Of a stretch of DNA of 50,330 nucleotides, positions 7,729 to 47,988 are shown one piece after another. The notes under the pieces are model-generated. The model was not told where the DNA came from. It did not search any database and was given only the letters and a program-made list of their open reading frames with translations. The stretch spans positions 1-50,330 of the forward strand of contig CAUZCF010000001.1 in the NCBI GenBank assembly GCA_963578425.1, read 5' to 3'. Every line of letters starts with the position of its first letter. Position 1 is the stretch's first letter. The stretch comes from Gammaproteobacteria bacterium (GTDB lineage Bacteria; Pseudomonadota; Gammaproteobacteria; Steroidobacterales; UBA11654). A program made the position numbers and the translations under genes.

Positions 7729-7760
7729 AAGGCAACTGGGTTCTCGGAGAAAGAGTCGGT

Positions 7761-11336: not shown

Positions 11337-11356
11337 AGAATCGTTATAAATATTTG

Positions 11357-12238: not shown

Positions 12239-12253
12239 CTTGTTTGGTGCTCA

Positions 12254-12293: not shown

Positions 12294-12320
12294 AAATTAA
12301 AAGAAAATATTTATGTTTAT

Positions 12321-14111: not shown

Positions 14112-14120
14112 ATTTATTTT

Positions 14121-14741: not shown

Positions 14742-14759
14742 GTTATTTTAATTATGACA

Positions 14760-15089: not shown

Positions 15090-15153
15090 TATCTTTAACT
15101 CTAATAATTAACTTAATAAAACCGAGTATATTACGATAGAGGCAGGATAATTT

Positions 15154-16146: not shown

Positions 16147-16263
16147 CTAATCTATTATGCCTAAATCTATGCGATTTATTTTAGGCTATAATTCAATAAT
16201 AAAACTATCTAGGAAACAAAAGGGGCTGTAATTTTTAAAAATACACAAAAAATATTTTTTCTG

Positions 16264-17019: not shown

Positions 17020-17023
17020 AGAA

Positions 17024-19059: not shown

Positions 19060-19151
19060 CAGATGAGAAAATTTAAATAATTATTACTCAGTTATAACAA
19101 GAGGCTATTTTCATCTAAACTAGTAATGAATTAAACCTTTTTATTATTTTT

Positions 19152-19775
19152 ATGAAAGATACTTTAAAAATTGGATTAACAGGGGGCATTGCTTCAGGCA
19201 AATCAACTGTTTGTGACTTTTTCTCACAATTATCTGTTGAAATCATCGATGCAGATAAAATATCACATGATATAACGAAAAAGGATGGGCTCGCCTTTCA
19301 AGAAATTTTAGATCACTTTGGTAATAAGATACTGGGTTTAGATGGCGAATTAGATAGACAGAAATTAAGATCACTAATATTTAATGATGCAGCTGAAAAA
19401 AGAACCTTGGAAAAGATAATCCATCCAAAAGTACTTAATGAAATTAATAAAAATATCTCTGATTCAACCGCATCTTATTTAATAATAGCTGTCCCTCTCA
19501 TGATTGAAACAGGCATGAATAAATTAATGGATAGAGTTTTACTTATAGATTGCTCAATTGAAACTCAAGTCAGACGATTGATTGAAAGAGACAAATGCAC
19601 TAAACAACAAGCTCAGAGTATTATTGAAAACCAAGCAAGTTTAGAGAGCAAAAGAGCAATTTGTGATGATGTTATTGTTAATGAAGAAGGTACAAGTCTT
19701 GATCATCTCAAAACTGAAGTAATAAGACTAAACAGTTTTTACAGCAATCTAGAAATAAAAAGGTTACATAAATAA
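19152..19775 (+). CDS. coaE: dephospho-CoA kinase
   Basis: P-loop GLTGGIASGKST, ~200 aa, followed by zapD as in other gammaproteobacteria. Confidence 0.9.
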   Translation: MKDTLKIGLTGGIASGKSTVCDFFSQLSVEIIDADKISHDITKKDGLAFQEILDHFGNKILGLDGELDRQKLRSLIFNDAAEKRTLEKIIHPKVLNEINKNISDSTASYLIIAVPLMIETGMNKLMDRVLLIDCSIETQVRRLIERDKCTKQQAQSIIENQASLESKRAICDDVIVNEEGTSLDHLKTEVIRLNSFYSNLEIKRLHK

Positions 19776-19818
19776 CCCCAAGTGCTATTTTATAATTCTC
19801 TAACAATTGGTTTTATGT

Positions 19819-20577
19819 ATGGAACAAGGGGTATATGAACTTCCATTAAATGAAAGATTAAGGACATTCATGAGAATTGAATTCCTTTATGCTCGCCTAA
19901 AATACTTCTCATCCGATTTAAAAGACAGTTGGGAAACTCGGACAGTAATTCATAGTATCTTGGAAATATATTCAATTTTATCTAGAACTGATGTGCGCAG
20001 AGAAGTTTTAGCTGATTTGGATAGGTACATAATGCAAATGCAACGATTTCAGTCAGTTCCTGATGCTGATTCTGATATGGTTACAAATACCCTTGAAGAT
20101 CTAGAATTAATTAAAGAAGAAGTAGTCAATATAGGAACTGATTATCTCAAACCATTAAGGACAGATGGATTTATTGCATCTTTGTTACATCGGCATACTT
20201 TGCCAGGTGGTAAAGCTGAATTTGATTTACCTAAATACAAATTCTTTCTTGAAGGGGATAAGAAATTTGTTAGTAAAAAAATCACCACATGGGTTGATAT
20301 TGTCCGACCACTGAGTGAAGGCATTGATAAATTGATGTGGATCATAAGGGAAAGCAGTGAACCGATTGCAACGATAGCTGTCGGTGGTCAATACAATCAT
20401 CAAATAGAAAGGCGAACTCAAATTTCACTTGTGAGAATTTTTCTAAAAAATAAAAAAATATTCCCTGAAATTAGTGGTGGTAGGCACTTGATTGCCGTTC
20501 GGTTTTTTGAAAACATTGGGGATGATAATTATCAGCAATATCAAAAGAATGTTGATTTCAAAATTTCTCTTTGTTGA
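19819..20577 (+). CDS. zapD: cell division protein ZapD
   Basis: N-terminus MEQGVYELPLNERLRTFMRIEFLY resembles E. coli ZapD ([20 protein letters not shown]). Located downstream of coaE. The start is taken at ATG 19819 rather than TTG 19807. Confidence 0.8.
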   Translation: MEQGVYELPLNERLRTFMRIEFLYARLKYFSSDLKDSWETRTVIHSILEIYSILSRTDVRREVLADLDRYIMQMQRFQSVPDADSDMVTNTLEDLELIKEEVVNIGTDYLKPLRTDGFIASLLHRHTLPGGKAEFDLPKYKFFLEGDKKFVSKKITTWVDIVRPLSEGIDKLMWIIRESSEPIATIAVGGQYNHQIERRTQISLVRIFLKNKKIFPEISGGRHLIAVRFFENIGDDNYQQYQKNVDFKISLC

Positions 20578-23820: not shown

Positions 23821-24111
23821 ATGAAACACATTTCAGAAGTGCTAAAGAATAACTTAAGTAATTTTAAGAAAATCTCAGAATCCTTAGATCAAAAAACTAT
23901 TATTTTAAAGAGTTTAAAGAAAAATATGGGTGAACTAGGTCAGCATATAACTGCTGCATATCTTGAAAAAAATAATACATTAATTATTGAATCAATTAAT
24001 TCTGAAGCTTCATCAAGAATACGGTTTGAAGAACTAAGAATAAAAAAAATTTGTGCACAATTAGGAGTTGTTCCTAAGAAAATAAAGTGTTTGGTCAAAC
24101 AAGGTTACTAA
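23821..24111 (+). CDS. small DUF721/DciA-like protein (tentative)
   Basis: 96 aa. The pattern ...[51 protein letters not shown] resembles the DUF721 consensus as I recall it. Lies between secA and lpxC. Assignment by eye only. Confidence 0.45.
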
Positions 24112-25022
24112 GCTTTACCTAAAGCTGCAGTCCAATAAGAGATAGGTATGTCTGTAATTTCTGACTCCTCGACCTCTTCCCAGGCAGATTCATCCGCGTA
24201 AAGTTTTCTTATCAGCTTATTATTTAGCTCATGACCAGATTTATAACCATTAAACTCTCCAACCAAAATATGGCCCATGAGATATAAATCACCAATGGCA
24301 TCCAAAATTTTATGTCTAACTAATTCATCCTCAAATCTTAATCCATCTTGATTTAAGATACGATAGTCATCAAGGACGATAGCATTATCTAAGCTACCAC
24401 CTAGGGCTAAATTATTTGCTCTCAATGTTTCAATTTCTTTTAGAAAGCCAAAAGTCCTAGCTCTTGATATCTCATTGAGGAAGGTTAGAGTAGAAAAATC
24501 AAAGCTAAACTCTGTTAATTTATGCTGAATCATAGGGTGCTCGAATTCAATTTTAAAACTTAGTCGATAGCCATTAAAAGGTTTAAATTCAGCAAATTTG
24601 TCATCTTCTTCAACTTTGACATTTTTTTTAATTCTCAGAAATTTCTTTGGTGCACTTTGTTCTATGATGCCCGCTAACTCAACTAATAAGATAAATGATG
24701 CAGCACTCCCATCCATTATAGGTACCTCAGGTCCATGAATATCAATACAAGCATTATCAATTCCTAAACCTGCAAAAGCAGCTAAAAGATGCTCAACAGT
24801 CATCACTGAGACATTATTTTGGGAGATAGTGGTTCCTAATCGAGTATCAGTTACATTGTTAGCATGAGCCTTGATTTCTTGTGTGGGGTCACAGTCGACT
24901 CTTCTAAAACGAATTCCTGAATTTTCAGATGCAGGCCTTAAGGTTATTTCAACCTTTTCACCACTGTGCAATCCTACACCTGCTGCAGATATAGTTTTAC
25001 CTAAGGTTCGTTGATGAAGCAT
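24108..25022 (-). CDS. lpxC: UDP-3-O-acyl-N-acetylglucosamine deacetylase
   Basis: 304 aa. N-terminus [24 protein letters not shown], plus TVEHLLAA and HK..D motifs. Confidence 0.95.
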
Positions 25023-25117
25023 TATCTTAAACCCCCTTTTTTTCTTAGAAACCTCTAAAACAGCTAAAGACTATCACAAATAAAGATTATTACTCAAGTC
25101 TTTGTTTTTATTGGGAA

Positions 25118-26350
25118 TTAAAGATTTGAGTTAAACCAAGCTTTCATTTTTTCAATCAATGAGGCAGAAGACTTTTGCTTTATTAATTCTTCAGGGTTTG
25201 ATTTAAACTTTTTAAGCGCATATAACAGTAACCCTGCTCCTGTTGCATTTTCTGGGCTATTAATGGTTTCAAAAGCCCCACTCATTGGTCGGGGATAACC
25301 AAGTCTAACATCAGAAGAGAACACTTCCTCTGCTAATTGAACAGCCCCACTAAGCAGTGAAGTGCCTCCCGTAAGCACAATACCGGCTCTAAGATTTTTA
25401 GTGTTCATCTTGCCAATTTCATCTAATACAACTTCAAATAATTCTTGATAACGTTGCTCTACAACTGTTGAGAGAACTTTTATTTCAGTTTGTCTGGGAG
25501 CACGATCACCGACACTGGGTACTTCAATCATGTCATTAGATCCGTTCAATTGAGATAGTGTACAGGCGTGTTTTATTTTTATTTCTTCAGCACTATCAAT
25601 TGGGGTTTTTAACTCATGAGCAATATCTATGGTTACATGATCTCCACCAATAGGTATAACTTTTGTCGTAAGAATTTGGCCATCTTTAAAAATAGCAATA
25701 TCAGTTGTGCCACCTCCAATATCAATGAGGCAGACTCCTAGATCTTTCTCATCTTTGGTTAATACAGACATACTAGATGCAAGAGGCTCTAATACAATTT
25801 CCTGCACCTCCAGATTACAACGTTCAAGTGATTTAACAATATTCTCCTCAGCACTTCTTGAGATAGTGACAATGTGAACATCTGCCTCTAAACGGATACC
25901 AGACATTCCTATAGGATCTCTAATTCCATCCTGACCGTCTATGACATAATCTTTTGGTAACACGTGCAATATTCTCTCTTCAGAGGGTATTTTCATGGCT
26001 TTAGAAGCATCAATAGCCCCAGCTATATCATGAAGGTTAACCTCCCCGCTACTGATTCTGACAAAACCATGCCCATCATAGCTCCTTACATGACTTCCAG
26101 CTATTCCTGCAAAGACTGTATTAATCTCACACTCTGCTATCTTTTCTGCTTGCTCTATGGCCTTAGCAATGGAATCAATAGTGGCTTCTATATTGACAAC
26201 CACTCCTTTTTTTAGGCCTGTGGATCTACTGAAACCTGCTCCGATAATTTTTAGCTCAGCATCATCATTAATCTCTGCTATAAGAGCAACTATTTTAGAT
26301 GTACCAATGTCAATGGCAGCTATGATTTCAGTGGAGTTATTTCTGGACAT
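25118..26350 (-). CDS. ftsA: cell division protein FtsA
   Basis: 410 aa actin-like ATPase (AIDIGTSKIVALI, DIGGGTTDIAIF). Confidence 0.95.
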   Translation of the reverse strand: MSRNNSTEIIAAIDIGTSKIVALIAEINDDAELKIIGAGFSRSTGLKKGVVVNIEATIDSIAKAIEQAEKIAECEINTVFAGIAGSHVRSYDGHGFVRISSGEVNLHDIAGAIDASKAMKIPSEERILHVLPKDYVIDGQDGIRDPIGMSGIRLEADVHIVTISRSAEENIVKSLERCNLEVQEIVLEPLASSMSVLTKDEKDLGVCLIDIGGGTTDIAIFKDGQILTTKVIPIGGDHVTIDIAHELKTPIDSAEEIKIKHACTLSQLNGSNDMIEVPSVGDRAPRQTEIKVLSTVVEQRYQELFEVVLDEIGKMNTKNLRAGIVLTGGTSLLSGAVQLAEEVFSSDVRLGYPRPMSGAFETINSPENATGAGLLLYALKKFKSNPEELIKQKSSASLIEKMKAWFNSNL

Positions 26351-26362: not shown

Positions 26363-27157
26363 CTAATTCTTCCGTTTTATGACAAAACCTTCTGCATACC
26401 TAAGATCAATATAAGAAATTAATTCAAAATTTTCTAATAGAGATTTATCCCAAATCATTAAAAATCTATTAAATCTTTCATCTGTGTTCTGCTCCCCTAA
26501 TTTGATCTCTATACCTGGTCTCACTGTTAGACTCCAAGAGCCTCTTAAATCAAGGCCTATTTTTTCTATTAGAATACCTCTAGCAATCAATTCATTATTA
26601 TACAGTTTGAATTGCTTATAGACTTCATCAACTAAATCTTCGGGGCCGAAAAACTGTATTAACTCACCTGGAATAACTCTTTTATCCAAAGCATATAAAC
26701 TGCCAGATGAATTCAACAAGAGTTCATTATTCCATATTCCGACTACATCATCTTCAATTACATTGATGTTAACAGTGTCAGGCCACTCTTTAGATATCTG
26801 AACTAACTTCACCCAATCAAAAGATTCCAATTTCTTTCTAAATAAGGATTGTCTAAGACCCAAAAACCCCTTATTTTTCATTTCTGAGGTAATAGATTGG
26901 ATCGTTTTTAATGACACCCGTTTAAAATCACCTTCTATATTGATCACACGAATGGGTTGATTTAAAGACACATAAATAAACGACAGTATTAGAGTAAATA
27001 TTACAACAAGTAAGAGCGGCTTATAGGAACGTTTATTTTTGTTCCTTCGACGAAATTTACTAAAGAAATTAAAACGGGTTTGTTTCTTTTTATTCTTCTT
27101 AGTTTTTTTTAGGAAACTCAATTTAATCAAGACTGGTTTTTTAAAATTTCTAAACAA
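26363..27157 (-). CDS. ftsQ: cell division protein FtsQ (start uncertain: TTG 27157 or TTG 27130)
   Basis: A single TM segment (LLLVVIFTLILSFIYV) followed by POTRA/FtsQ-type domains, positioned between ddl and ftsA. Both candidate starts are TTG. The N-terminus is very basic. Confidence 0.8.
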   Translation of the reverse strand: MFRNFKKPVLIKLSFLKKTKKNKKKQTRFNFFSKFRRRNKNKRSYKPLLLVVIFTLILSFIYVSLNQPIRVINIEGDFKRVSLKTIQSITSEMKNKGFLGLRQSLFRKKLESFDWVKLVQISKEWPDTVNINVIEDDVVGIWNNELLLNSSGSLYALDKRVIPGELIQFFGPEDLVDEVYKQFKLYNNELIARGILIEKIGLDLRGSWSLTVRPGIEIKLGEQNTDERFNRFLMIWDKSLLENFELISYIDLRYAEGFVIKRKN

Positions 27158-28047
27158 AGGGTGTTGAAATCTATTCCTTGTTCTTTAGCTGCCATTGGCA
27201 CTAAGCTATGGGTTGTCATACCAGGAACAGTATTTATTTCAAGAATCACTGGTCGATGGTCATCGTTTAAAAAAAAGTCTACTCTTCCCCACCCTCTTAT
27301 ATTAAAAAGTTCAAAAATAAATAAACACTCTTTCTTGATACTCTCTTCAACTTCTTTATCAAGCTCACTTGGGCAAATATATTTTGTTTCATCGCTAAGA
27401 TACTTAGCTTCATAGTTATAAAACTCTTCATTACTGGCATCAATTTTTACCAAGGGCAGCACCTTATCTGCTAAGAATCCTGCGGTGTATTCAGGTCCAT
27501 CAAAATATTCTTCAGCAATTAACCAATCATTTAATTGGTGAATTTCTAAATATTTCTCATTATATTGATCCTCATCTTTGATAATAAAAATACCCAAACT
27601 AGATCCTTGAGAACACGGCTTAATAATGAATGGAGATCCTAAAGTATCTGAGATTTCTAAGAAAGTTGTTGTGTCATCCAGTATCAAAAAATCTGGTGTT
27701 TGGTGATTATTAGCAATAAGGACTTTTTTCGTAAATAACTTATTCATGGTCAAAGAACAACTCAAGGTACGACTACCCGTAAACGGTATATCTGATAATT
27801 CCAACAAACTTTGAATTTTCCCATCCTCCCCGTCTGCTCCATGGAGAGCTATCCAAACATTATTGAATTTTTCATCTAATAATCGCTTTATAAAAGGTTC
27901 TTTGGTATCGATTAGATGAGCATCGACTCCTTTTATTTTTAAAGCGTTATAAACAGCTTCACCAGAAATTAGAGAAATTTCCCGTTCTGATGAATTACCG
28001 CCGTACAAAACAGCAACTTTCCCAAAACCATTATTTGTTTTTGACAC
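27127..28047 (-). CDS. ddl: D-alanine--D-alanine ligase
   Basis: 306 aa ATP-grasp enzyme (VAVLYGGNSSEREISLISG, GRVDFFL, EINTVPGMT). Confidence 0.95.
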   Translation of the reverse strand: MSKTNNGFGKVAVLYGGNSSEREISLISGEAVYNALKIKGVDAHLIDTKEPFIKRLLDEKFNNVWIALHGADGEDGKIQSLLELSDIPFTGSRTLSCSLTMNKLFTKKVLIANNHQTPDFLILDDTTTFLEISDTLGSPFIIKPCSQGSSLGIFIIKDEDQYNEKYLEIHQLNDWLIAEEYFDGPEYTAGFLADKVLPLVKIDASNEEFYNYEAKYLSDETKYICPSELDKEVEESIKKECLFIFELFNIRGWGRVDFFLNDDHRPVILEINTVPGMTTHSLVPMAAKEQGIDFNTLCLEILKNQS

Positions 28048-28930
28048 TTAATTTCTCGCCTATGATTCTAACTTCAGTCTCTAATTCTACATCAAACTGG
28101 CTACTGACAATTTCTTGAACATATTCAATCAGGTCCTCAATATTTTCTGATGTAGCATTACCCTCATTGACAATAAAATTTGCATGCTTAGTCGATATAG
28201 AAGATCCACCAATTCTATAACCCTTCAAACCTGCTCTCTCAATAAAATCTCCAGCATGTCCTTTCTCTGGATTCTTGAAAACTGACCCGCAAGTATCCTC
28301 GCTCAGTGGTTGCGTTTTAATTCTCTGATCTCTCAATTCTTTTAGCTCAGATTTAGTTGTAATCTCAGAATTAGGAAATTTCATTCGACAAGATAAAAAC
28401 CAAAGAGGAAATGGGAAATGTACTGTCCTGTAAGACAATGAGAAGTCATTAGGGTTCAAATGATGAATCATTCCTTTTTTATCAATCACCTCCACAGATT
28501 CCACAAAATCCCATGTTTCATAGCCAAAAGAACCCGCATTCATTACTAGAGCCCCTCCGATAGATCCTGGGATTCCAGAGAAAAATGCTGCTGGGCCTAT
28601 TTTATTTTTTTCAGCAAACAATGCTAAATCCATACATGAAGCTCCTGCCTCCACTCTACAAGTATTATCTGCTTCTTTCTTAATCTCATTCAGAGATTTT
28701 TTTGTTGAAATAACGACACCCCTAATACCGCCATCCCTAACTAAGACATTGGTACCATTCCCCAGCCATGTGATGGGCTTATTATGGTTTAATTTTAAAA
28801 ATTGAGACAAATCATCACGATTCTCAGGTGTAAAGAAAGTATCTGCCGGTCCTCCTACTTTCCAAGAAGTATGTTTAGATAGTAACTCATTCGAAAGACA
28901 TTGATCTTTGGGTTTTTTAAACACCGTCAA
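28031..28930 (-). CDS. murB: UDP-N-acetylenolpyruvoylglucosamine reductase
   Basis: 299 aa with an FAD-binding PCMH domain (GNGTNVLVRD, GIPGSIGGALVMNAGS) and C-terminal GGSSISTKHANFIVN. Confidence 0.92.
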   Translation of the reverse strand: MTVFKKPKDQCLSNELLSKHTSWKVGGPADTFFTPENRDDLSQFLKLNHNKPITWLGNGTNVLVRDGGIRGVVISTKKSLNEIKKEADNTCRVEAGASCMDLALFAEKNKIGPAAFFSGIPGSIGGALVMNAGSFGYETWDFVESVEVIDKKGMIHHLNPNDFSLSYRTVHFPFPLWFLSCRMKFPNSEITTKSELKELRDQRIKTQPLSEDTCGSVFKNPEKGHAGDFIERAGLKGYRIGGSSISTKHANFIVNEGNATSENIEDLIEYVQEIVSSQFDVELETEVRIIGEKLSVKNK

Positions 28931-30087
28931 CTCCCGTCAAAGAAAGGAACTTGAAGTGGAGGCTTCTCTATCATCTTGTAGCAAAATTGCGTGATGTTCT
29001 CAGTTGCATCAACGAAAGTCTCATCAAAAGCAGACTTTGACATATCACTAAGCTTATTTTCTTCTTGGAAAATTCTCTTGATAGTATGAGCTAGGATATC
29101 TGGCTTTAGATCTTTATCTAGAATAACCTCAGCTCCTCCTTTTTCTGCTAAAAATTGGGCATTAAACCATTGATGATTATCCATAGCATGTGGAAATGGT
29201 ATTAGAATTGAAGGAAGACCTATAGCACTAACCTCAGAAACAGTCATAGCACCTGCTCGACCAATCAATAAATCTGCCCAAGCATATGCTTCATCTATAT
29301 TGGGATTAAAATTTGTAATTTTGGCATCTATCCCTAACTCTAAGTATTGATTTTTTACAGTCTCAAAGTCTTGTTCTCCAGAATCATGCATTACCTCTAC
29401 TGGATGATCTGCCATCAACAAACTTATAGCTTTAGGAGCAGTCATGTTTATAGATCTAGCACCTTGGCTCCCACCCATTATGAAAATCCTAGGTTTTTTT
29501 GATTTATCAGGAAATGGTTTCACTGTTTTATCGATATTCAAAATCTCATCCCTGACTGGATTACCCAGAAAGACATGGTCCTCAGTTGCAGCTGAAAGAC
29601 TAAAAAAAGTAGTCTTCCAGCCAAAGCCACCTGGTAGTCCCTCAATAATGCCTTTGGCTTGGGTTGCTGCAATGTATCTGTTTGCTCTTCCTGCCTTAGC
29701 ATTTTGTTCATGGATGACTACATAGGGCATGGTAATATTTCCTGGCTCAGAAGCTGTTTTACAAAGATCGAATGAAGCATAGCCGCCCATTCCTAAAATC
29801 AATTGTGGAGATAGCTCAGCTACATATCTTCTCAATTCCCGATCTGGTCTAGTCAAGGCAGCTAAATATTTTTTAAGTCTAGAGGTGTCCTTGAATCTAT
29901 TCTTAAAAAAAACAGTCTCAATGTCATATTGAGCAAATATTTTCTTTTCCAGAGCATTGCCGGTACCAACAATTACAACTTTATGCCCGTCAGATTTAAA
30001 TTTTTTTGCCAACGCTATAGCTGGGAAAATGTGCCCGCCTGTACCGCCGGCACCAATGAGGATAGTGTATTTTTTTTCTTCAGTCAC
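28927..30087 (-). CDS. murG: UDP-N-acetylglucosamine--N-acetylmuramyl-(pentapeptide) pyrophosphoryl-undecaprenol GlcNAc transferase
   Basis: 386 aa. N-terminal GAGGTGGHIFPAIALA. Positioned after ftsW. Confidence 0.93.
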   Translation of the reverse strand: MTEEKKYTILIGAGGTGGHIFPAIALAKKFKSDGHKVVIVGTGNALEKKIFAQYDIETVFFKNRFKDTSRLKKYLAALTRPDRELRRYVAELSPQLILGMGGYASFDLCKTASEPGNITMPYVVIHEQNAKAGRANRYIAATQAKGIIEGLPGGFGWKTTFFSLSAATEDHVFLGNPVRDEILNIDKTVKPFPDKSKKPRIFIMGGSQGARSINMTAPKAISLLMADHPVEVMHDSGEQDFETVKNQYLELGIDAKITNFNPNIDEAYAWADLLIGRAGAMTVSEVSAIGLPSILIPFPHAMDNHQWFNAQFLAEKGGAEVILDKDLKPDILAHTIKRIFQEENKLSDMSKSAFDETFVDATENITQFCYKMIEKPPLQVPFFDGS

Positions 30088-31237
30088 CGGTTCTTACATT
30101 TTTCTTTGGTTGAGGATTCTCACAACCTATTCTCAATACCATGGCTAAAGTAATAAGTGTAATTGCTATACTACTGCTGCCATAGCTAATCAAAGGCAGT
30201 GTCAGTCCTTTGGTTGGAAGAAGACCCATATTAACCCCAAGATTAATAATCACTTGGAGTGATAACCATATCCCTATTGAGATACACAAATAACCTTGAA
30301 ACATAAGCTCAGATCTAATGGCTTTAAACCCAATGACAAAGATTCGAGAGATTAGAAGGCCATATAAAGACAGAATCAATACCGTTCCCATTAAACCTAA
30401 TTCTTCAGCAATGATGGCAAAAATAAAATCCGTATGAGCCTCAGGTAAATAGAATAATTTTTGAATGCTCTCACCTAAGCCAACACCAAATATTCCCCCA
30501 CTGCCTATAGCAATTAATGAATTGGTTAATTGATAGCCAGCGCCGAGTGAATCTTTCCATGGTTCAAGAAAACCTGCAAGGCGGCTCATCCTGTATGGCT
30601 CAATATATATTAGAAATGCAAAGGTAAGCCCTAAAATGATGATGAGTGCTAAGAAGTATCTTATTTTAAACCCAGCAATAAAGAATAAGCCGGCAGTGAC
30701 TGAAAGTATGATAACTGTTGAGCCAAAATCGGGTTGTCCTAAAAGCAGAAGGCAAGCCGGAATAATAAATATCATCGGTTTTACGAAACTCATAAAATCA
30801 CTGGTTAAGGCTTCTTGCTGTCTATAGCAATAACCAGAAATATAAATTAACAGCAGTAACCTAGCTGGATCTACTACTTGTATATTTGGTAAGGGACCTA
30901 TCTTAATCCAGCGTGTTGCTCCGTTTGCTGTCACCCCTATATCAGGAATGAACACTATAGTTAGGAGTCCAATGGCTAATATTGGCAGAAGAATTCCAAA
31001 CTTTTCCCACACACGACTTGGAATTAGGAAGGCAATGAAACCGGCTGACAGACCTAATCCAATTGAGAAGAGTTGTTTGTATACATAACCGTAGGGATCT
31101 CCGAGGTTCTTAACTGCGATCGGCATTGAAGCTGAAGCTAACATCACTAATCCACCTATTAATAACACAACTGTAACTATGACAAATAAATGGTCTATGC
31201 CATGAAAAAGATTAGTGTGTCGTCTATCTGAAACCAA
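30080..31237 (-). CDS. ftsW: SEDS-family peptidoglycan polymerase / lipid II flippase FtsW
   Basis: 385 aa polytopic SEDS protein (PEAHTDFIFAIIAEELG), between mraY and murG. Confidence 0.92.
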   Translation of the reverse strand: MVSDRRHTNLFHGIDHLFVIVTVVLLIGGLVMLASASMPIAVKNLGDPYGYVYKQLFSIGLGLSAGFIAFLIPSRVWEKFGILLPILAIGLLTIVFIPDIGVTANGATRWIKIGPLPNIQVVDPARLLLLIYISGYCYRQQEALTSDFMSFVKPMIFIIPACLLLLGQPDFGSTVIILSVTAGLFFIAGFKIRYFLALIIILGLTFAFLIYIEPYRMSRLAGFLEPWKDSLGAGYQLTNSLIAIGSGGIFGVGLGESIQKLFYLPEAHTDFIFAIIAEELGLMGTVLILSLYGLLISRIFVIGFKAIRSELMFQGYLCISIGIWLSLQVIINLGVNMGLLPTKGLTLPLISYGSSSIAITLITLAMVLRIGCENPQPKKNVRTGD

Positions 31238-31269
31238 AACTTATCCTAAGAGCATAGCTTGTCTTCTTT

Positions 31270-32349
31270 TCATCGAATCTTAAGGCTGGATAACCCTATT
31301 AATACCAAAAAAACAGTAATAATCCAGAAACGAACAATGACCTTAGGTTCTGCCCAGCCTTTTAATTCAAAATGATGGTGAATTGGTGCCATATTAAATA
31401 TTCTTTTACCTCTGATTTTGTAGGAACCAACTTGTAAAATTACTGAGAGCGTTTCCACAATGAAAACTCCACCCATGATTGCTAATACTAGTTCTTGCTT
31501 AACAATTACTGAAATTAAACCCAAAGTCCCCCCTAAAGAAATAGCACCAACATCACCCATAAAGACTTGAGCTGGATAAGTGTTAAACCATAAAAACCCT
31601 AAACCTGCTCCAGAAATAGCACAACATATTACAAAAACTTCACCCGCTTCTCTTAGGAATGGAAGATCCAAATAAGAAGAAAAATTTATATTGCCAGTGA
31701 CATAAGCAAAAATACCCAAAGCAATGGAAATCATTACTACTGGCATAATAGCAAGACCATCAAGGCCATCGGTAAGGTTAACAGCATTACTAGAACCAAC
31801 AATTACAAAGATAGCAAAAGGTAAAAATACCCACCCAAGATCCAATCTCACATTATTCGTAAAAGGTATAAGTAAGTCTGTGGCGATTGGCTCCACAGAA
31901 CCATAAAATAGATAGTTTATAGCCCCATAAGCAACACCTATTTGCATAAAAAACTTTATGGAGGCACTCAAACCATTTTTATTGCCTTTTAACTTTATAT
32001 AATCATCAATAAAACCAATAAGACCAAATAGCAGCATGCTAAAAAAAATGGTAATAATATAGCTATTGGTAAGATCGCTCCATATCAATGTACTCACTGA
32101 TACTGAAAGTAAAATCAGAATGCCTCCCATTGTTGGAGTACCTTTTTTCTTGGCATGTGATATTGGTCCATCTTCTCTTATGGATTCACCAATATCATTA
32201 CCTTCCAATAGGCTAATCAACCTAGGCCCAAAAAGAAATGAAATAACTAAAGCGGTCAAGGCACTCAAAATTCCTCGCGTGGTGATATATGTGAACGCAT
32301 TAAATGCAGAAAAGATTTCAATCAACTGATCTGAGAAAAATAAAAACAA
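31270..32349 (-). CDS. mraY: phospho-N-acetylmuramoyl-pentapeptide transferase
   Basis: 359 aa with KKGTPTMGG, NAVNLTDGLDGLA and MAPIHHHFE motifs. Confidence 0.96.
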   Translation of the reverse strand: MFLFFSDQLIEIFSAFNAFTYITTRGILSALTALVISFLFGPRLISLLEGNDIGESIREDGPISHAKKKGTPTMGGILILLSVSVSTLIWSDLTNSYIITIFFSMLLFGLIGFIDDYIKLKGNKNGLSASIKFFMQIGVAYGAINYLFYGSVEPIATDLLIPFTNNVRLDLGWVFLPFAIFVIVGSSNAVNLTDGLDGLAIMPVVMISIALGIFAYVTGNINFSSYLDLPFLREAGEVFVICCAISGAGLGFLWFNTYPAQVFMGDVGAISLGGTLGLISVIVKQELVLAIMGGVFIVETLSVILQVGSYKIRGKRIFNMAPIHHHFELKGWAEPKVIVRFWIITVFLVLIGLSSLKIR

Positions 32350-32416
32350 CTTCTGTTACCTCAATAGATTTAATTCATGGATTATCAAGAATCATTAATT
32401 GTACCAGAGATATTTA

Positions 32417-34090
32417 TTATATTTTATCTGGTGCAACCCCCAACAATCTAAGTGTTCTCGATGCGATTGAAGCAAATATTGGAGCTGCAACCTGACCTCC
32501 ATAATACTCCCTTCCTTGAGGCTCATTAACAATGACTGCAACAACTATTCTAGGGTCAGAGATAGGGACAATACCAACAAAAATAGCATTATGAGCATCT
32601 CGTGAATAATTAGCTGCAGCAATTTGTGCAGTGCCTGTTTTTCCACCCACCCTATAACCATTAATTTGTGCTCTAACAGCAGACCTTTCCACAACTTGCT
32701 CAAGCATCAATAAAAGTGTCTGAGATGTTTGCTCAGACAATACTCTATTGCCTACAGCTAGTTCATCAATTCGCTCTAGTGAGATATTATTCTTAACCCC
32801 TCGATTCGCTATTGTTGCATAAGCATTTGCCAATTGAATTAAATTAACATCAACGTTATAACCAAAAGCTAAAGAAGCACGCATGCCATCTCTCCAGCGT
32901 TGATATGAGCTGTCTAGAGTCCCTGAAGTTTCCCCAGGAAAACCTGAAGCAGTTGCTTGCCCAATACCTAATTTTGATAGAATTTCATAAAATAATTCTG
33001 GGTCAGTTAATAGTGAAATCTTTGATGCTCCAACATTACTGGATTTAATCAAAATCTCACCTAGGCTAAGTGGCCCATAATATCTTGGATCCTTAATTTC
33101 TCTTGAACCGATTGAATAAGGAAGGGTGTCAATCGTGTCTGTGGAATTAAAAATTTCATGCTCAAGAGCAGTCGCAACAATTAAGGGTTTAAATGTTGAT
33201 CCGGGTTCAAATTTATCCGTTAGGGCACGATTCTTATAAAACTTAGGTAATCTAAGTTTGAGATTACTCATATCTGCAGAAGGATTATTGACAATTGCTA
33301 GTACCTCACCAGTTTTAATGTCTAAAACAACTGCAGAAGCTTTCTTTGCCTGGGAGCTATTCACTCCTTCGTTAAGAGCAGCATGAGCTATATATTGAAT
33401 CCTAACATCTATGCTCGTATAAAAATCCTTCCCTTGTTTAGCTGGCTTAATGATTTCAACGTCTTCAATAGTATTTAAGCCAATATCAGTAATCGCTTTC
33501 TTTTTGCCATCTTGTCCTGACAAATAATTATTCAGAGCATACTCTAAACCCTCTTGACCTTGATCTTTATTATCGTTGAATCCTATGATCTGTGTTGTCA
33601 CCTCAGCATTAGGATTAAATCTTTTGTAAGCCTTCTCTAACCAAAAATAATTGCTTTTTTTTAGGCGATTAATTAAAGCTACTTGATCTTTTTCTAATTC
33701 TCTGGAGAGGATAAAATATCTTCTAGATGACCTTTTCTTTATCTCTTGATCAAGTCTCGAGTGATCAATTTTTAATACTGAAGCCAAAGACTTAGACAAC
33801 TCCTGATATCGTTTTGAAGATAAAAAGATCTTTGGATCCACCACCAAATTGCTAACTGGGATGCTAACAGCTAAAGGGTTAGAATTTCGATCATATATAG
33901 TGCCTCGACTTGATGGAATGATGAGAGTTTTTATATGTTTCTTATCTCCTTCGGCATTTAAAAAATCAGACTCAATGTATTGAAGATAAAATGATCTAGA
34001 TAGAAGAATAATGATTAGAGCAATCAGAATAATGCTCAGAAAAATAAATCGGTTCCTAATAAGCCTTAAATTATTACTGCTTATCTTCAT
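32417..34090 (-). CDS. ftsI: peptidoglycan D,D-transpeptidase FtsI (PBP3)
   Basis: 557 aa with an N-terminal TM segment and the transpeptidase motifs STFKP, SSN and KTGT. Confidence 0.93.
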   Translation of the reverse strand: MKISSNNLRLIRNRFIFLSIILIALIIILLSRSFYLQYIESDFLNAEGDKKHIKTLIIPSSRGTIYDRNSNPLAVSIPVSNLVVDPKIFLSSKRYQELSKSLASVLKIDHSRLDQEIKKRSSRRYFILSRELEKDQVALINRLKKSNYFWLEKAYKRFNPNAEVTTQIIGFNDNKDQGQEGLEYALNNYLSGQDGKKKAITDIGLNTIEDVEIIKPAKQGKDFYTSIDVRIQYIAHAALNEGVNSSQAKKASAVVLDIKTGEVLAIVNNPSADMSNLKLRLPKFYKNRALTDKFEPGSTFKPLIVATALEHEIFNSTDTIDTLPYSIGSREIKDPRYYGPLSLGEILIKSSNVGASKISLLTDPELFYEILSKLGIGQATASGFPGETSGTLDSSYQRWRDGMRASLAFGYNVDVNLIQLANAYATIANRGVKNNISLERIDELAVGNRVLSEQTSQTLLLMLEQVVERSAVRAQINGYRVGGKTGTAQIAAANYSRDAHNAIFVGIVPISDPRIVVAVIVNEPQGREYYGGQVAAPIFASIASRTLRLLGVAPDKI

Positions 34091-34367
34091 TAATTAATAA
34101 TACTTTTATTTTTGAAGAATCTGGTAATTGCATTGATGCCTTGTCATTAGCTTCCTTTTCTAAACTCATTCCAGATGAAAGTTCTGAGAGATCCAAACGA
34201 AGTTCCTTCCATTTAATTTCAAGCTGATCTTTTTGTTTGACTAATAATTGATATTGCTTAAATAGCTCTCTATTTTTGTAATGTAAATCTATTTCATAAG
34301 TTGCAGTCATAGCAACCATTAAAAACCAGAATAAAGGCCACTTGTACCAATTGAACTCTTCTTTCAT
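34074..34367 (-). CDS. ftsL: cell division protein FtsL
   Basis: 97 aa bitopic coiled-coil protein between rsmH and ftsI, with 4-nt and 17-nt overlaps to those neighbours. Confidence 0.8.
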   Translation of the reverse strand: MKEEFNWYKWPLFWFLMVAMTATYEIDLHYKNRELFKQYQLLVKQKDQLEIKWKELRLDLSELSSGMSLEKEANDKASMQLPDSSKIKVLLINEDKQ

Positions 34368-35293
34368 TTTATTTTTTCAGCGGCCCTCAATATCGCACTT
34401 CGTGCTCTTGGATTGATTTTAATCTCCTCATCTGAAGGTTTTATTTTCTTTAATATAACTTTTAATTTAGATGTGTCTTCAATGTTTGGCAACTTGGATA
34501 AATTTGGATCTATCCTAGAATTATCTCTAAAAAAGCGTTTAACAATTCTATCTTCAAGTGAATGAAAGCTAATAATAACGATTCTTCCACCTGGCTTTAG
34601 GCGTTCTAAACCAAAATCTAATAATGATCTTAACTCCTCAAGCTCATCATTAATATGTATTCTAATAGCTTGAAATGTTTTAGTGGCTGGGTGCTTCTTT
34701 TCTTTTTTTATAGAATATTTTTTTAATTGATAAACAAGATCAGCAAGCTCGAAGGTGCTACTAAATGGCTTAATACTTCTTTGTTCTATTATTGCTTTTG
34801 CAATTCTTCTTGAGTACGACTCTTCTCCATACTTCCAAATTACCCCTGAAATCTCATCTTCAGCTGCTGTATTGATCCAGTCTTTAGCTGAAATGCCAGT
34901 TGATTGATCCATTCTCATGTCCAACTCAGCATCTTTCTTAAAACTAAAACCTCTTTCTTTAGAGTCTAGTTGATGTGATGAAACACCCAAATCAGCTATG
35001 ATTCCATCAAATGAAAAAGAACGATCCGTTTGACTTATTTCTGTTCTTAAGCTTTTAAAATTACTTTTAAGAATAGTGAGTTGAGGATGAGAAAATTTAG
35101 ATTTAAGATAAGCAATTGAGTCTTGATCCCTGTCAGCAGCTATTAGATGCCCTTGATTATCCAAACTTTCTAAAATTAATTGCGTGTGGCCTCCAAATCC
35201 AGCTGTAGCGTCTAGATACAAACCCTTGGAAGCGGTCATCATTACCTTTGTGGATTCTTTAGCAAGGACAGGTATGTGTAATGCTTTGAACAT
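34364..35293 (-). CDS. rsmH: 16S rRNA (cytosine1402-N4)-methyltransferase
   Basis: 309 aa. HIPVLAKE, DATAGFGGHT, DLGVSSHQLD and SFHSLEDRIVK motifs. Confidence 0.95.
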   Translation of the reverse strand: MFKALHIPVLAKESTKVMMTASKGLYLDATAGFGGHTQLILESLDNQGHLIAADRDQDSIAYLKSKFSHPQLTILKSNFKSLRTEISQTDRSFSFDGIIADLGVSSHQLDSKERGFSFKKDAELDMRMDQSTGISAKDWINTAAEDEISGVIWKYGEESYSRRIAKAIIEQRSIKPFSSTFELADLVYQLKKYSIKKEKKHPATKTFQAIRIHINDELEELRSLLDFGLERLKPGGRIVIISFHSLEDRIVKRFFRDNSRIDPNLSKLPNIEDTSKLKVILKKIKPSDEEIKINPRARSAILRAAEKIK

Positions 35294-35335
35294 AACTAAA
35301 GAATTTAGATTTTATAAAATAGATAATGCCTAAAA

Positions 35336-36487
35336 TTAGGCATCCTGTCTTTTCAAAAATTGAGGAACATCAAGTATTTCTAATTCTTCATGTTTTCCAA
35401 TAATTGCTTCTTCCTTATTTTCAAATAGATCCTTAGTCTCTCTTAATGGATTTCTTTCAGTTATAGGTCTATCAAGATTACTAAAATTAGTTTTATCCTT
35501 TATCTTAATCTCAGATTGTCTCTCACCTAAACCAGTTGCAACGAGAGTTACTCTAATTGAATCATTCATATTCTTTGAGATAGCTGTACCAACTATAACC
35601 TTAGCCTTATCTGAAGCATAACTTTTGACGATCCCACCAATTTCATCAAATTCTGATATTTCAAGATCTTCATCTGCTGTAACATTGAGTAAAATTCCTT
35701 TAGCTCCTTCCAAATCAATATCCTCCAGCAAAGGGCTATTTACTGCTTCTTCAATTGCTCTTCGCCCCCGATCAGGTCCAGAAGCAACTGCAGAGCCCAT
35801 AATTCCTCTCCCCTTATCACTCATAACTTTTTTAACATCTGCAAAATCAAGATTCATTAGGCCTGGAACGGTAATCAGCTCAACAATACCTTGGACTGAA
35901 TTTAGTAAAACATCATTCGCAGCCTCAAAAGCATCTACTAGGGTAATTTTCTTGCCCAATGATTGTAATTTATCATTAGGTATTATGATGAGAGAATCGA
36001 CATGTTTCTCTAACTCCTTTATACCTTCTTCAGCATATTGAGCCCTTAAATCACCTTCCCAATTGAAAGGCTTAGTGACGACGGCAACGGTCAAAATACC
36101 TAATTCTTTTGCAATCTCAGCTATAACAGGACTTGCTCCAGTCCCTGTGCCACCACCAAAACCTGCTGTAATAAACAACATATCTGTTTCAGATATTGCA
36201 TTTGCTATTGCTTCCTTGCTTTCTTTTGCTGATGCACTCCCTATACCTGGATCCATACCAGCACCTAGACCTTTGGTAGTATCTATTCCTATTTGTATTT
36301 TTGTTGCGACATGGGATTGTGCTAAATCTTGAGCATCTGTATTAGCACATAGAAAATCGACACCCTCCATCCCCTTAGAGATCATATGACCAACTGCATT
36401 GCCCCCGCTTCCACCAACCCCAATGACCTTTATATTGGCTTTTTGATTAGCCGTATCATCTATTACAAAAGCAAAATCTACCATCAT
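35336..36487 (-). CDS. ftsZ: cell division GTPase FtsZ
   Basis: 383 aa. IKVIGVGGSGGNAV, the tubulin signature GGGTGTGASPVIA, T7 loop NLDFADV, and the C-terminal conserved peptide LDVPQFLKRQ. An AGGAG Shine-Dalgarno lies 2 nt before ATG 36487 and 5 nt before ATG 36484, so 36484 may be the true start. Confidence 0.95.
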   Translation of the reverse strand: MMVDFAFVIDDTANQKANIKVIGVGGSGGNAVGHMISKGMEGVDFLCANTDAQDLAQSHVATKIQIGIDTTKGLGAGMDPGIGSASAKESKEAIANAISETDMLFITAGFGGGTGTGASPVIAEIAKELGILTVAVVTKPFNWEGDLRAQYAEEGIKELEKHVDSLIIIPNDKLQSLGKKITLVDAFEAANDVLLNSVQGIVELITVPGLMNLDFADVKKVMSDKGRGIMGSAVASGPDRGRRAIEEAVNSPLLEDIDLEGAKGILLNVTADEDLEISEFDEIGGIVKSYASDKAKVIVGTAISKNMNDSIRVTLVATGLGERQSEIKIKDKTNFSNLDRPITERNPLRETKDLFENKEEAIIGKHEELEILDVPQFLKRQDA

Positions 36488-36499
36488 TTCTCCTAATTT

Positions 36500-36949
36500 C
36501 TATAATGACAACATCTCAAAATCTTTGGGTAAGGTAAGTGTTTCTTTCTCTAACCATTTCTCTCGAGACTTAGTCCATGTTAAATAATCCCAGATTTCAA
36601 AACGCTTACCCTGACCTATAAACATTGCTTCTTTATTAATTTTTGAAAATTCTCTTAGCTCTAAAGGAATTAAAATTCTTGCTGAAGAATCTATGTCTAT
36701 TTCAACTGCATGACCTACAAGCAATCTTTGTAATTTCCTACTGGAATTATCAAGGCTTGGTAGTTTCATTATTTTCTCTTCTATCTTTAACCAGTGGTTT
36801 AATGGATATAATAAAAGACAGTGATCTAGATCTATTGTGCAAATCAGCTTATTCTTAGAAATTTTAATTAGTTCATTTCTATATTTTGTAGGAATCGAAA
36901 CCCGACCCTTAGTATCAAGACTAATTTTATTTAAACCTCTAAACATCAT
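36500..36949 (-). CDS. mraZ: transcriptional regulator MraZ
   Basis: The MMFRGLNKISLDTKGRVSIP start is typical of MraZ (MFRG). Two SpoVT-AbrB-like halves. The track ORF extension to 36991 is rejected because it runs through the promoter/operator. Confidence 0.9.
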   Translation of the reverse strand: MMFRGLNKISLDTKGRVSIPTKYRNELIKISKNKLICTIDLDHCLLLYPLNHWLKIEEKIMKLPSLDNSSRKLQRLLVGHAVEIDIDSSARILIPLELREFSKINKEAMFIGQGKRFEIWDYLTWTKSREKWLEKETLTLPKDFEMLSL

Positions 36950-36976
36950 ATATAACAATAGGATCACAGTAAATAT

Positions 36977-36992
36977 CCCACTTTTTACCACT
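36977..36992 (-). promoter_or_regulatory. candidate MraZ operator: direct repeats AAGTGG / AAGTGGG with 10-nt periodicity
   Basis: The minus strand reads ttAAGTGGtaaaAAGTGGGatatttactGTGa, between the -10 box and the mraZ ATG. It matches the (A)AAGTG[G/T] MraZ box consensus as I recall it. The third repeat is degenerate and out of phase (14 nt). Confidence 0.5.
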
Positions 36993-36999
36993 TAAATAC

Positions 37000-37027
37000 A
37001 CTATAGTTTATTGGTCAATTATGTCAA
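37000..37027 (-). promoter_or_regulatory. sigma70-like promoter for mraZ-ftsZ-rsmH... (Pmra candidate)
   Basis: The minus strand reads TTGACA-16 nt-TATAGT. TTGACA is at 37027-37022 and TATAGT at 37005-37000, about 50 nt upstream of the mraZ ATG. Confidence 0.55.
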
Positions 37028-37065
37028 CAGAAAGATAATTAGAGAATAGTTCTAATTAGAGAAAA

Positions 37066-37397
37066 GGAGTTGATCTATAAGCCGGGTTCTGTCTTGGACA
37101 ATCATTCATCTGGGATGCTTGTCACCAAGCACCTCTAGCAACCTACCCTAGAGCGATTACGGGATATCATAGCTCTTCTATTTGGTTTTGCTCTCGATGG
37201 GGTTTGCAATGCCATAAATGTTGCCATTTATGCGGTGTGCTCTTACCACACCTTTTCACCCTTACTTTATCAAAGCGGTTTATTTTCTGTTGCACTTTCC
37301 AGAGGCTCACGCCTTCCAGGAATTACCTGGCATCGTTCCCGTTAGAGCCCGGACTTTCCTCCAAATTAATTTATTTGGCGATTGTCTGACCAACTCC
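37066..37397 (-). ncRNA. rnpB: RNase P RNA, bacterial type A
   Basis: The minus strand contains GGAGGAAAGTCCGGGCTC (37362-37345), GATGCCAGGTAA, AGTGCAACAGAAA, GTAAGGGTGAAAAGGTGTGGTAAGAGCACACC, AGATGAATGATTGTCCAAGACAGAACCCGGCTTA (ending near 37078), and terminal P1 pairing GGAGTTG (37397-37391) / CAACTCC (37072-37066). This closely parallels E. coli M1 RNA. The ends are accurate to within a few nt. Confidence 0.93.
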
Positions 37398-37436: not shown

Positions 37437-38267
37437 CTAGTATTGTTTTTCTAACGCATAAGCATAAATAATTTTTTTAGAATAACCGGTAATTTTTGCA
37501 CAGATCTTGATGGAACTTTTTAATGACAGCTCAAGTGTTAGAAGGCTTAAAATAAAATCTATTTTTTCATAATCAATACTTGTATTTCTTTTACCTTGAA
37601 CAATGATAGTAAATTCACCTTTCAATCTATCAGGGTTGTTTGATAAATAATTAGAAATCTCTAATAAATTACTGCCTAAAAAACTTTCATAGAGTTTTGT
37701 TATCTCTTTGCAAAGGACTGCATTTCTATTTTCACCAAAAATCTCTTTCATTGACTCAATAGTATTAACTATTCTATGAACAGACTCATAAAATATTAAT
37801 GTTTCTGATCTGTTAGTAAGCTTTCTCAGTTCTTTAGCTCTTTTTACTTTGGTTTTTGGTAAAAACCCATAAAAGGTAAATTTATCTGAGGCAATACCTG
37901 AAGCAGTTAATGCAGCTATTGCTGCAGAACAACCTGGTACGGGTATAACTTGGATTGATTCCTCTCTAGCAGACCGAATTAGGAGATATCCTGGATCACT
38001 AATCAATGGTGTGCCTGCATCAGCAATTAATGCAATATTTTTCCCCTCCTTTAATTTTTTAATTAAAGTTTTCGTTTTCTGATTCTCATTAATCAGATTA
38101 AAGGATGTTATTTTATTCTCTATTGCATAGTGATTGAGTAGCTTTTGAGCAACTCTAGTATCTTCTGCAAGAATTAGATCGACACTTTTTAGAACCTCAA
38201 TTGCTCTAAAAGTTATATCTCGTAAGTTACCAATAGGAGTTGAAACAATATTTAATTGGCCGGGCAT
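37437..38267 (-). CDS. rsmI: 16S rRNA (cytidine1402-2'-O)-methyltransferase
   Basis: 276 aa tetrapyrrole-methylase fold. N-terminus LNIVSTPIGNLRDITFRAIEVLKSVDLILAEDTR. Confidence 0.9.
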   Translation of the reverse strand: MPGQLNIVSTPIGNLRDITFRAIEVLKSVDLILAEDTRVAQKLLNHYAIENKITSFNLINENQKTKTLIKKLKEGKNIALIADAGTPLISDPGYLLIRSAREESIQVIPVPGCSAAIAALTASGIASDKFTFYGFLPKTKVKRAKELRKLTNRSETLIFYESVHRIVNTIESMKEIFGENRNAVLCKEITKLYESFLGSNLLEISNYLSNNPDRLKGEFTIIVQGKRNTSIDYEKIDFILSLLTLELSLKSSIKICAKITGYSKKIIYAYALEKQY

Positions 38268-46854: not shown

Positions 46855-47988
46855 TTATTGAAAAATACTCTTTATTTGCTCTTTTTGTTCTATTGCATCT
46901 TGAAAACCCAGTTCGATTAATTCCTGAGTGAACGAGGATTCAAACAATAAAAAACTTAACAACTCAGACTGACTTTTATTGTTTAAACCTAACCCTCTTA
47001 AAAGTAGCTTGATTGAATAAGGTAGTTCACTGAAATGTCCTTCAGCAATGAGGTTAATATCCTTTGAGGGTGAAATAATACAATAATCCAGATGTTTCAT
47101 TTGCTTTGATGCAGTATTGATTGGACCATTACCAGAATGTTTGATAATTTGGTTAATACGGTCCAGGCGTTCTAAATCTGATAAAAGCCCACTAGAGAAT
47201 AATGCATCGAGCATATAGCCTCCTATCTCTCCTATTGAAGGATGATCTCTTTCATCGGTATCAGGATTTTTCTTATTATTATCTGTGGTGATGATTAATA
47301 ATTTTTCAGCTCCTAGACGAATTGCTGGTGACAATGGCGTGGCATGACGCATGGCTCCATCACCGAAGAATTCATTATCAATTTTCACTGCTGGGAAAAT
47401 TAAAGGCAGCGCCACGCTGGCCATCAGATGATCAGTAGTGGCTCTCGATTCTATGCCCTTTCTTCTGAACTTCTCCCAATTAATATTTTTTTTATTGGAT
47501 TGGAAGAATGTTATTGATTTTCTGGAACTATAACCAGCTGCCGTTATAGCAAAAGCCTCCAGATTGCCCTCATCGATATTTGATCTTATATGATCAAGAT
47601 TGATGCTTTCAGATAAAAGGTTTCTTAACGGTGAATTATTGAGCAATGACTTTGGATTCTTGACTAAGGTTCCTCCGGAAACAATAGTAACTAGCCAGTG
47701 TAAACTGCTTTTAAACATTGTTAGGCTATCTGTTTTATATACTCTATTGGTTTTAAAGTTACTCCAAATATCATTCAGTAAATCAACCGCATCAATAAAA
47801 GAGTCTGCTTTTGATGCTATGACGCTTGCATTAATAGCCCCGACTGATGTGCCACTGATGGTACTAAAAGGATTTTTAACTCTATCTGGCAGAATTTCAT
47901 TAATCCCTTTTAATACGCCAATTTGATAAGCACCTCTTGCGCCTCCACCAGGGAGAACCAAACCCATTTTATTTTCGAATATGTTCAT
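46855..47988 (-). CDS. patatin-like phospholipase
   Basis: Oxyanion motif GGGARGAYQIGVL, nucleophile elbow GTSVGA (GxSxG) and a DGA-type catalytic Asp (FGDGAM). Confidence 0.85.
   Translation of the reverse strand: MNIFENKMGLVLPGGGARGAYQIGVLKGINEILPDRVKNPFSTISGTSVGAINASVIASKADSFIDAVDLLNDIWSNFKTNRVYKTDSLTMFKSSLHWLVTIVSGGTLVKNPKSLLNNSPLRNLLSESINLDHIRSNIDEGNLEAFAITAAGYSSRKSITFFQSNKKNINWEKFRRKGIESRATTDHLMASVALPLIFPAVKIDNEFFGDGAMRHATPLSPAIRLGAEKLLIITTDNNKKNPDTDERDHPSIGEIGGYMLDALFSSGLLSDLERLDRINQIIKHSGNGPINTASKQMKHLDYCIISPSKDINLIAEGHFSELPYSIKLLLRGLGLNNKSQSELLSFLLFESSFTQELIELGFQDAIEQKEQIKSIFQ

Follow-up and report, generated by a model that had tools for sequence, protein, structure and literature searches.

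The dcw cluster, which holds genes for cell division and the cell wall, has a gene order that ranks among the most conserved in bacteria. In Escherichia coli, it runs mraZ-rsmH-ftsL-ftsI-murE-murF-mraY-murD-ftsW-murG-murC-ddlB-ftsQ-ftsA-ftsZ-lpxC, and ftsZ stands at the distal end, beside ftsA, almost as a rule. Much of the transcription of ftsZ in E. coli arises from promoters located inside ddlB-ftsQ-ftsA. Here, the dcw cluster of an uncultured gammaproteobacterium was analysed in a stretch of DNA of 50,330 nucleotides (GenBank assembly GCA_963578425.1, contig CAUZCF010000001.1), which is referred to as the window. In this cluster, a canonical ftsZ gene was found to be relocated from the slot between ftsA and lpxC to the slot between mraZ and rsmH, where it is stably inherited.

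Like that of E. coli, the window cluster is tightly packed on one strand, has mraZ as its first gene after a promoter in which MraZ boxes are repeated, and shares its genes for division and for lipid II. It is flanked in a manner typical of Gammaproteobacteria, by rsmI-rnpB upstream and lpxC-secA-mutT downstream. In contrast to E. coli, ftsZ is the second and not the last gene, ftsA abuts lpxC, the genes murE, murF, murD and murC are missing from the cluster, and murB lies inside. It is thus a gene-order variant of a well-known cluster and not a new kind of system.

The nearest functional analogue is the four-gene operon of Mollicutes, a reduced dcw operon with the order mraZ-mraW-ftsA-ftsZ which is regulated by MraZ (PMC12957436). 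Both are compact operons of reduced genomes in which ftsZ lies shortly behind a promoter controlled by MraZ (by prediction in the window), and the GTG(G/T) boxes, their 6-nt spacers and the DNA-contacting residues of MraZ are conserved. In Mollicutes, however, the gene order was preserved and the proximity was reached by deletion of the wall genes, whereas here the wall genes remain and ftsZ was transposed ahead of rsmH. The number of boxes also differs, with three here (two in some lineages) and four in Mollicutes. A further comparison is offered by the SUP05 clade (Ca. Thioglobus autotrophicus, Ruthia, Vesicomyosocius), for which the absence of ftsZ was reported (PMC6509183, PMC4164004). These are also marine, AT-rich Gammaproteobacteria with small genomes and without ftsZ at the canonical site, but there ftsZ is reported to be missing altogether, while here a canonical ftsZ is kept at a new site.

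The features of the cluster are given below in the order in which they are read on the minus strand. Genes were identified with NCBIfam equivalog models and their curated cut-offs, and RNA with Rfam.

37437-38267, minus strand: rsmI, upstream flank of the dcw cluster
37062-37397, minus strand: rnpB, class A RNase P RNA (full-length match to Rfam RF00010 with 325.7 bits)
37000-37027, minus strand: Pmra-like sigma-70 promoter, TTGACA-16 nt-TATAGT
36978-37001, minus strand: putative MraZ operator with three GTG(G/T) boxes (pattern scan), GTGTatttaaGTGGtaaaaaGTGG
36500-36949, minus strand: mraZ, 149 aa from the ATG at 36949 (TIGR00242)
36488-36499, minus strand: mraZ-ftsZ junction, 12 nt including AGGAG (read from the sequence)
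35336-36487, minus strand: ftsZ, 383 aa, probably 382 aa from the ATG at 36484 (TIGR00065)
35294-35335, minus strand: ftsZ-rsmH junction, 42 nt, with the ATG of rsmH at 35293 (read from the sequence)
26363-35293, minus strand: rsmH-ftsL-ftsI-mraY-ftsW-murG-murB-ddl-ftsQ, tightly packed (NCBIfam)
25118-26350, minus strand: ftsA, last division gene of the cluster (TIGR01174, 440.9 bits)
25023-25117, minus strand: ftsA-lpxC spacer of 95 nt, the empty canonical slot of ftsZ (sequence and tblastn)
24108-25022, minus strand: lpxC (TIGR00325, 387.3 bits), followed by secA

Between 36949 and 25118, the cluster comprises 13 co-oriented genes, whose gaps range from -31 to +67 nt. It is contiguous, headed by mraZ and made of fts genes together with genes for lipid II synthesis (RsmH, FtsL, FtsI, MraY, FtsW, MurG, MurB, Ddl and FtsQ were also assigned by NCBIfam models), as expected of a dcw cluster. 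It does not follow the canonical order with ftsZ at the end (ftsQ-ftsA-ftsZ, then lpxC), nor are murE, murF, murD and murC interleaved with the fts genes. The positions reported in a first-pass annotation of the window were exact: the stop codon of mraZ ends at 36500 and the first ATG of ftsZ lies at 36487, with gaps of 12 nt to mraZ, 42 nt to rsmH and 95 nt between ftsA and lpxC.

The displaced gene is full-length, as that annotation had claimed, and encodes a canonical FtsZ. Against the equivalog model TIGR00065, which has a cut-off of 295.2 bits, the protein scored 403.6 bits, and residues 16-381 aligned with the solved FtsZ structure 9isk_A (383 aa) with an E-value of 1e-117. This alignment takes in the GGGTGTG loop, the T7 loop NLDFADV and, at the C-terminus, the peptide LDVPQFLKRQ. 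The conserved C-terminal peptide of FtsZ is the tail which binds FtsA, ZipA and ZapD; both FtsA and ZapD are encoded within the window. The gene had also been credited with its own AGGAG ribosome-binding site upstream of the ATG at 36487. The AGGAG motif is indeed present, but it is located only 2 nt from this ATG and fits better, at 5 nt, to a second ATG at 36484. Because of this spacing, and since FtsZ is mostly called at 382 aa in the close relatives listed, 36484 is the likelier start. A tblastn search with a permissive threshold (E <= 100) revealed neither a second ftsZ nor a remnant across the 50 kb, the 95-nt spacer between ftsA and lpxC included; for this spacer, the result agrees with the first reading.

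The same arrangement, mraZ-ftsZ-rsmH (type A), was encountered repeatedly in independent data. The exact FtsZ protein is encoded on at least eight contigs, and the four that are shown come from four separate JGI samples and hold both junctions. An ENA contig of 1,528,883 bp (ERZ25070185 ctg137341) and an NCBI metagenome-assembled genome (MAG; GCA_022451705.1) display the same order, and FtsZ there belongs to one 90%-identity cluster with that of the window. Type A was also encountered on independent contigs whose FtsZ has 97, 96, 75, 73, 66 and 64% identity. In the last four, the complete series mraZ-ftsZ-rsmH-ftsL-ftsI-mraY-ftsW-murG-murB-ddl-ftsQ-ftsA is maintained, and the upstream synteny mgtE-lptB-lptC-kdsD / bolA-murA-petABC-sspA-rsmI is shared. 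At the other end, ftsA is directly joined to lpxC in relatives with LpxC at 87, 79 and 77% identity (spacers of approximately 75-140 nt). Beyond types A and B (the latter described below), the tblastn map of 88 loci contained 76 others, among them loci of Pasteurellaceae, Oceanococcus, Oxydemutatoraceae, Ectothiorhodospiraceae, Formivibrio, Desulfobacterota and Christensenella. The order ftsA-ftsZ was found in 72 of them, with lpxC as the next gene in Gammaproteobacteria and Formivibrio-type loci; three short loci contained ftsZ alone or with only lpxC behind it, and one begins inside ftsZ.

Two irregularities were observed among the relatives. In L003 (14139-16230), mraY was recovered as two tblastn pieces and MurG was 61% identical to that of the window, against about 90% for its neighbours. 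In L097 (1852-2407), murB was called as a fragment of 165 aa after a gap of 550 nt. Frameshifts or assembly errors in the two contigs may lie behind these irregularities.

The possibility that the order was already common and documented in the clade had been left open by the first-pass annotation. Common it is, being universal in the clade, while no description of it was found. Full-text literature yielded no description of either mraZ-ftsZ-rsmH or the order ftsI-ftsZ-murE of type B; the comparative dcw study of Megrian et al. (2022), with its supplementary data, was outside this search. Where the string 'mraZ-ftsZ' occurs in the literature, it denotes the stretch that the operon covers in E. 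coli, and it was rejected as a prior description. The initial annotation is extended in three respects: mur ligase genes were lost from the cluster, the order is conserved throughout the clade, and ftsZ of a related lineage occupies a second displaced slot.

Regarding the first of these, murE, murF, murD and murC are not part of the cluster: ftsI runs into mraY (32350-32416), mraY into ftsW (31238-31269) and murG into murB (28927-28930). The two largest internal spacers, of 67 and 32 nt, correspond to the usual sites of murE-murF and murD, respectively. No Mur ligase gene was found anywhere in the 50-kb window, nor within 10 kb on either side of ftsZ in type A relatives.

The second displaced slot (type B) was identified in L005 (JABGXU01), a MAG contig of 590 kb from Saanich Inlet with 27.6% GC, where the order is mraZ-rsmH-ftsL-ftsI-ftsZ-murE-murF-mraY-murD-ftsW-murG-murC-murB (6485-20447). 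FtsZ proteins about 66% identical to that of L005 are numerous in ocean metagenomes; this lineage has approximately 28% GC, and the window 36%. The order of L005 was found again in the two type B relatives that were checked (L101 and L102), one of them on a scaffold of 1.08 Mb (1,077,127 bp; ENA ERZ23498582 scaffold_1). A metagenome scan anchored on type B MurC delivered 36 loci (L103-L138). In seven of them (L103, L105, L109, L112, L113, L124 and L132), ftsI-ftsZ-murE and an ftsA joined directly to lpxC lie on the same contig. The presence of both junctions on single contigs indicates that in type B ftsZ sits in a new slot and the old slot is empty; the mur ligase genes were kept. Type B ftsI and ftsZ overlap by 11 nt. 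An open reading frame (ORF) of 40-43 aa was also noticed between ftsZ and murE of type B (L101, 11313-11444; L102, 11336-11458); the one of L101, which was the one scanned, had no Pfam match.

The relationship between both types was addressed with neighbour-joining trees of 19 taxa (200 bootstraps, 20-state and Dayhoff-6 coding). With eight markers (FtsZ, MraY, FtsW, MurG, Ddl, FtsA, LpxC and SecA; 2,712 columns), the grouping of A with B was recovered in 200 of 200 replicates under both codings, which places the two types as each other's closest relatives among these taxa. As the related and more AT-rich type B has ftsZ between ftsI and murE, it is suggested as the more parsimonious course that ftsZ departed from the 3' end only once, in a common ancestor, and was shifted further afterwards.

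Upstream of mraZ, the sequence TTGACA-16 nt-TATAGT at 37027-37000 is the best sigma-70-like match (11 of 12 positions) between 24000 and 37500, a region in which promoter-like sites are rarer than in shuffled sequences (28 versus 46 +/- 6). Operators of MraZ consist of GTG(G/T) boxes with 6-nt spacers, typically three in number (PMC12957436). The element GTGTatttaaGTGGtaaaaaGTGG at 36978-37001, which reads GTGT-N6-GTGG-N6-GTGG, agrees with this consensus and spacing, with an overlap between its first box and the last part of the -10 hexamer. The pattern occurs only once in the window and was not matched in any of 100 shuffles. Among the loci which hold the region upstream of mraZ, it was detected there in 13 of 17 from type A and in all three from type B. 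When six type A lineages are aligned, both hexamers (-35 and -10) and the boxes stand out as invariant islands within a variable spacer. These boxes thus represent the expected, putative binding site of MraZ, and the earlier placement of ftsZ directly behind Pmra and such an operator is borne out. In addition, rnpB, on the same strand, ends no more than some 35 nt ahead of the dcw promoter and its -35 hexamer, in types A and B; rnpB is likewise located upstream of the promoter in the type A relatives.

MraZ itself scored 135.9 bits on TIGR00242 (cut-off 98.35). Its two SpoVT/AbrB-type halves are present, with intact DTKGR (K13, R15) and DSSAR motifs, and the K13/R15 contacts agree with the residues described in PMC12957436. 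The GTG at 36991, which the ORF list gives as start of mraZ, belongs to the operator as its middle MraZ box, and mraZ truly starts with the ATG at 36949 or 36946 (MMFRG/MFRG). Gene calling by the longest ORF would bury the operator inside the coding sequence of mraZ, which is called at 148, 149, 155 or 163 aa in the relatives.

At the mraZ-ftsZ junction, the gap measures 11-24 nt in all type A lineages examined, and no terminator-like site was found. A consensus scan for a dedicated ftsZ promoter returned only 9-of-12 matches within mraZ, with -10 elements overlapping the start codons of mraZ or ftsZ. In the window, mraZ lacks a Shine-Dalgarno sequence and ftsZ is preceded by AGGAG. Downstream, an 8-bp hairpin (GATGCCTAATTTTAGGCATT, 35325-35344, minus strand) overlaps the stop codon of ftsZ and is followed by a T-rich tract, but it is weak (z = -0.96). 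It is present in the window, L001 (JAPYQN01) and L002, degraded in L003 and absent in the lineages with 75% and 73% FtsZ identity; in the 64-66% lineages, the ftsZ-rsmH gap is only 14 nt. An attenuator after ftsZ was therefore rejected as a conserved element, the hairpin being weak and confined to the closest relatives.

Given the conserved Pmra and boxes, and given that no terminator or good promoter is found between both genes, co-transcription of ftsZ with mraZ is most likely. The following model is proposed, to which a probability of roughly 75% is assigned: ftsZ was relocated to the second place of the cluster, where it is co-transcribed with mraZ from Pmra under the control of MraZ, within a wider remodelling of the cluster. 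Lying 12-15 nt after mraZ, ftsZ would be transcribed together with it from a single strong and conserved promoter. With ftsZ at the front, internal promoters of the E. coli type in ddlB-ftsQ-ftsA can no longer serve it, and the supply of FtsZ would be tied directly to the autoregulation of MraZ instead of to promoters inside ddl-ftsQ-ftsA. A low level of MraZ and a high level of FtsZ from one mRNA would be set at translation, by the missing Shine-Dalgarno sequence of mraZ and the AGGAG in front of ftsZ. If expression naturally declines along the 12-kb operon, the promoter-proximal place might also favour expression of ftsZ over that of ftsA, which is speculative. The move of ftsZ would be one part of the remodelling, through which murE, murF, murD and murC also left the cluster. 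The sequences establish which genes are present and in what order, the persistence of this order across lineages, the vacated slot and the conserved promoter with its boxes; from them we infer co-transcription, control by MraZ, the order of the evolutionary events and any selective advantage.

Several points weigh against this model. The Shine-Dalgarno sequence before ftsZ is poor in the 64-66% lineages, so that what the model says on translation does not hold throughout, and four type A loci of these lineages (L085-L088) have only two boxes. A weak or non-consensus promoter inside mraZ is possible, and transcription from Pmra only is thus a prediction. No conserved attenuator follows ftsZ which could account for the ratios of FtsZ to the downstream proteins. 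The copy number of ftsZ was searched in the 50-kb window and in pieces of about 20 kb of the relatives, and a second copy could lie beyond these stretches. Finally, the relationship of types A and B rests on neighbour-joining of 19 sparsely sampled taxa, and with four markers the support for A+B dropped from 198/200 to 114/200 upon Dayhoff-6 recoding, which makes compositional attraction between AT-rich lineages a real concern.

Alternatively, the relocation could be real but neutral for regulation, with ftsZ keeping an embedded promoter or one that departs from the sigma-70 consensus, and the new order fixed by drift in a shrinking genome. The cluster was indeed reshuffled in other ways too, with four mur ligase genes gone and another slot used in type B, as expected from a non-adaptive rearrangement. 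Moreover, ftsZ moved without gaining a conserved attenuator or any further new regulatory element, and weak promoters are invisible to consensus scans. Nevertheless, this explanation, the main alternative, is considered unlikely. The promoter matches within mraZ are limited to 9 of 12 positions with -10 elements overlapping start codons, mraZ and ftsZ are 11-24 nt apart in all of the lineages, the order survived a deep divergence (FtsZ down to 64% identity), and both independent slots are in the promoter-proximal half of the cluster.

It is very improbable that the gene beside mraZ is an additional or foreign ftsZ, obtained by duplication or horizontal acquisition, with the working gene elsewhere or replaced. 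The limited view of 50 kb here and of about 20 kb in the relatives leaves some room for it. However, the protein has an equivalog-level score and every canonical motif, including the FtsA/ZipA/ZapD-binding tail, and the canonical slot is empty across the clade; the divergent paralog which the first-pass annotation had named as a possible refutation is thus contradicted. In addition, the identity of FtsZ falls in step with that of neighbours such as MraZ (75% versus 75%, 66% versus 66%), and paralogs of an essential gene are unlikely in view of the related genome of only about 1.5 Mb. As for an assembly or binning artefact, a concern with an uncultured source because metagenome assemblies can be chimeric, it is excluded by the recurrence of the same junctions in independent JGI, ENA and NCBI assemblies and on the 1.53-Mb contig, with junction sequences that have co-diverged down to 64% FtsZ identity.

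A more far-reaching scenario building on the relocation model is put forward as a doubtful proposal. In two abundant ocean lineages, ftsZ would have left the 3' end of the dcw cluster once and moved stepwise towards the promoter, to the position after ftsI in type B and after mraZ in type A, a move selected because internal promoters of the ftsQAZ type disappeared during genome streamlining. MraZ and Pmra would then be the sole control of the supply for the Z-ring, and the detachment of ftsZ from ftsA might be an intermediate state before the loss of ftsZ, as in SUP05.

In the flanking regions, lpxC is followed by a small antisense ORF and then by secA and mutT. The antisense ORF of 96 aa (23821-24111, plus strand), located between lpxC and secA, matched the Pfam family DciA (PF05258) over its full length (profile positions 2-87 of 89) with a sub-threshold score of 18.1 bits (cut-off 24), and may encode a replicative-helicase loader. 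Antisense ORFs of 94-95 aa were called at the matching position in the relatives L093 and L095. Further away, a protein of 377 aa (46855-47988, minus strand) showed a weak match to the model of the cGAMP (cyclic GMP-AMP)-activated phospholipase of CBASS (cyclic oligonucleotide-based antiphage signalling system), with 49.6 bits against a cut-off of 200. The scanned ORFs of the window included no further CBASS component, so that a housekeeping lipase is more probable than a defence gene. A patatin-family gene (379 aa) lies beside lptB at the matching position in L083.

The order described here would surprise specialists of the dcw cluster. It also has practical consequences: in fragmented MAGs or single-cell genomes, seeking ftsZ beside ftsA or lpxC would falsely suggest an organism without FtsZ, and synteny-based annotation or binning checks could flag type A and type B contigs as chimeric. 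The predicted co-transcription is testable without cultures if ocean metatranscriptomes cover these lineages. With two conserved natural exceptions that retain every other division gene, a natural experiment is available which would allow a direct test of how gene order relates to divisome assembly and to the FtsZ:FtsA ratio. The consequences for the cell are deduced, but these lineages offer a natural case in which MraZ, a little-understood regulator, should control ftsZ directly.

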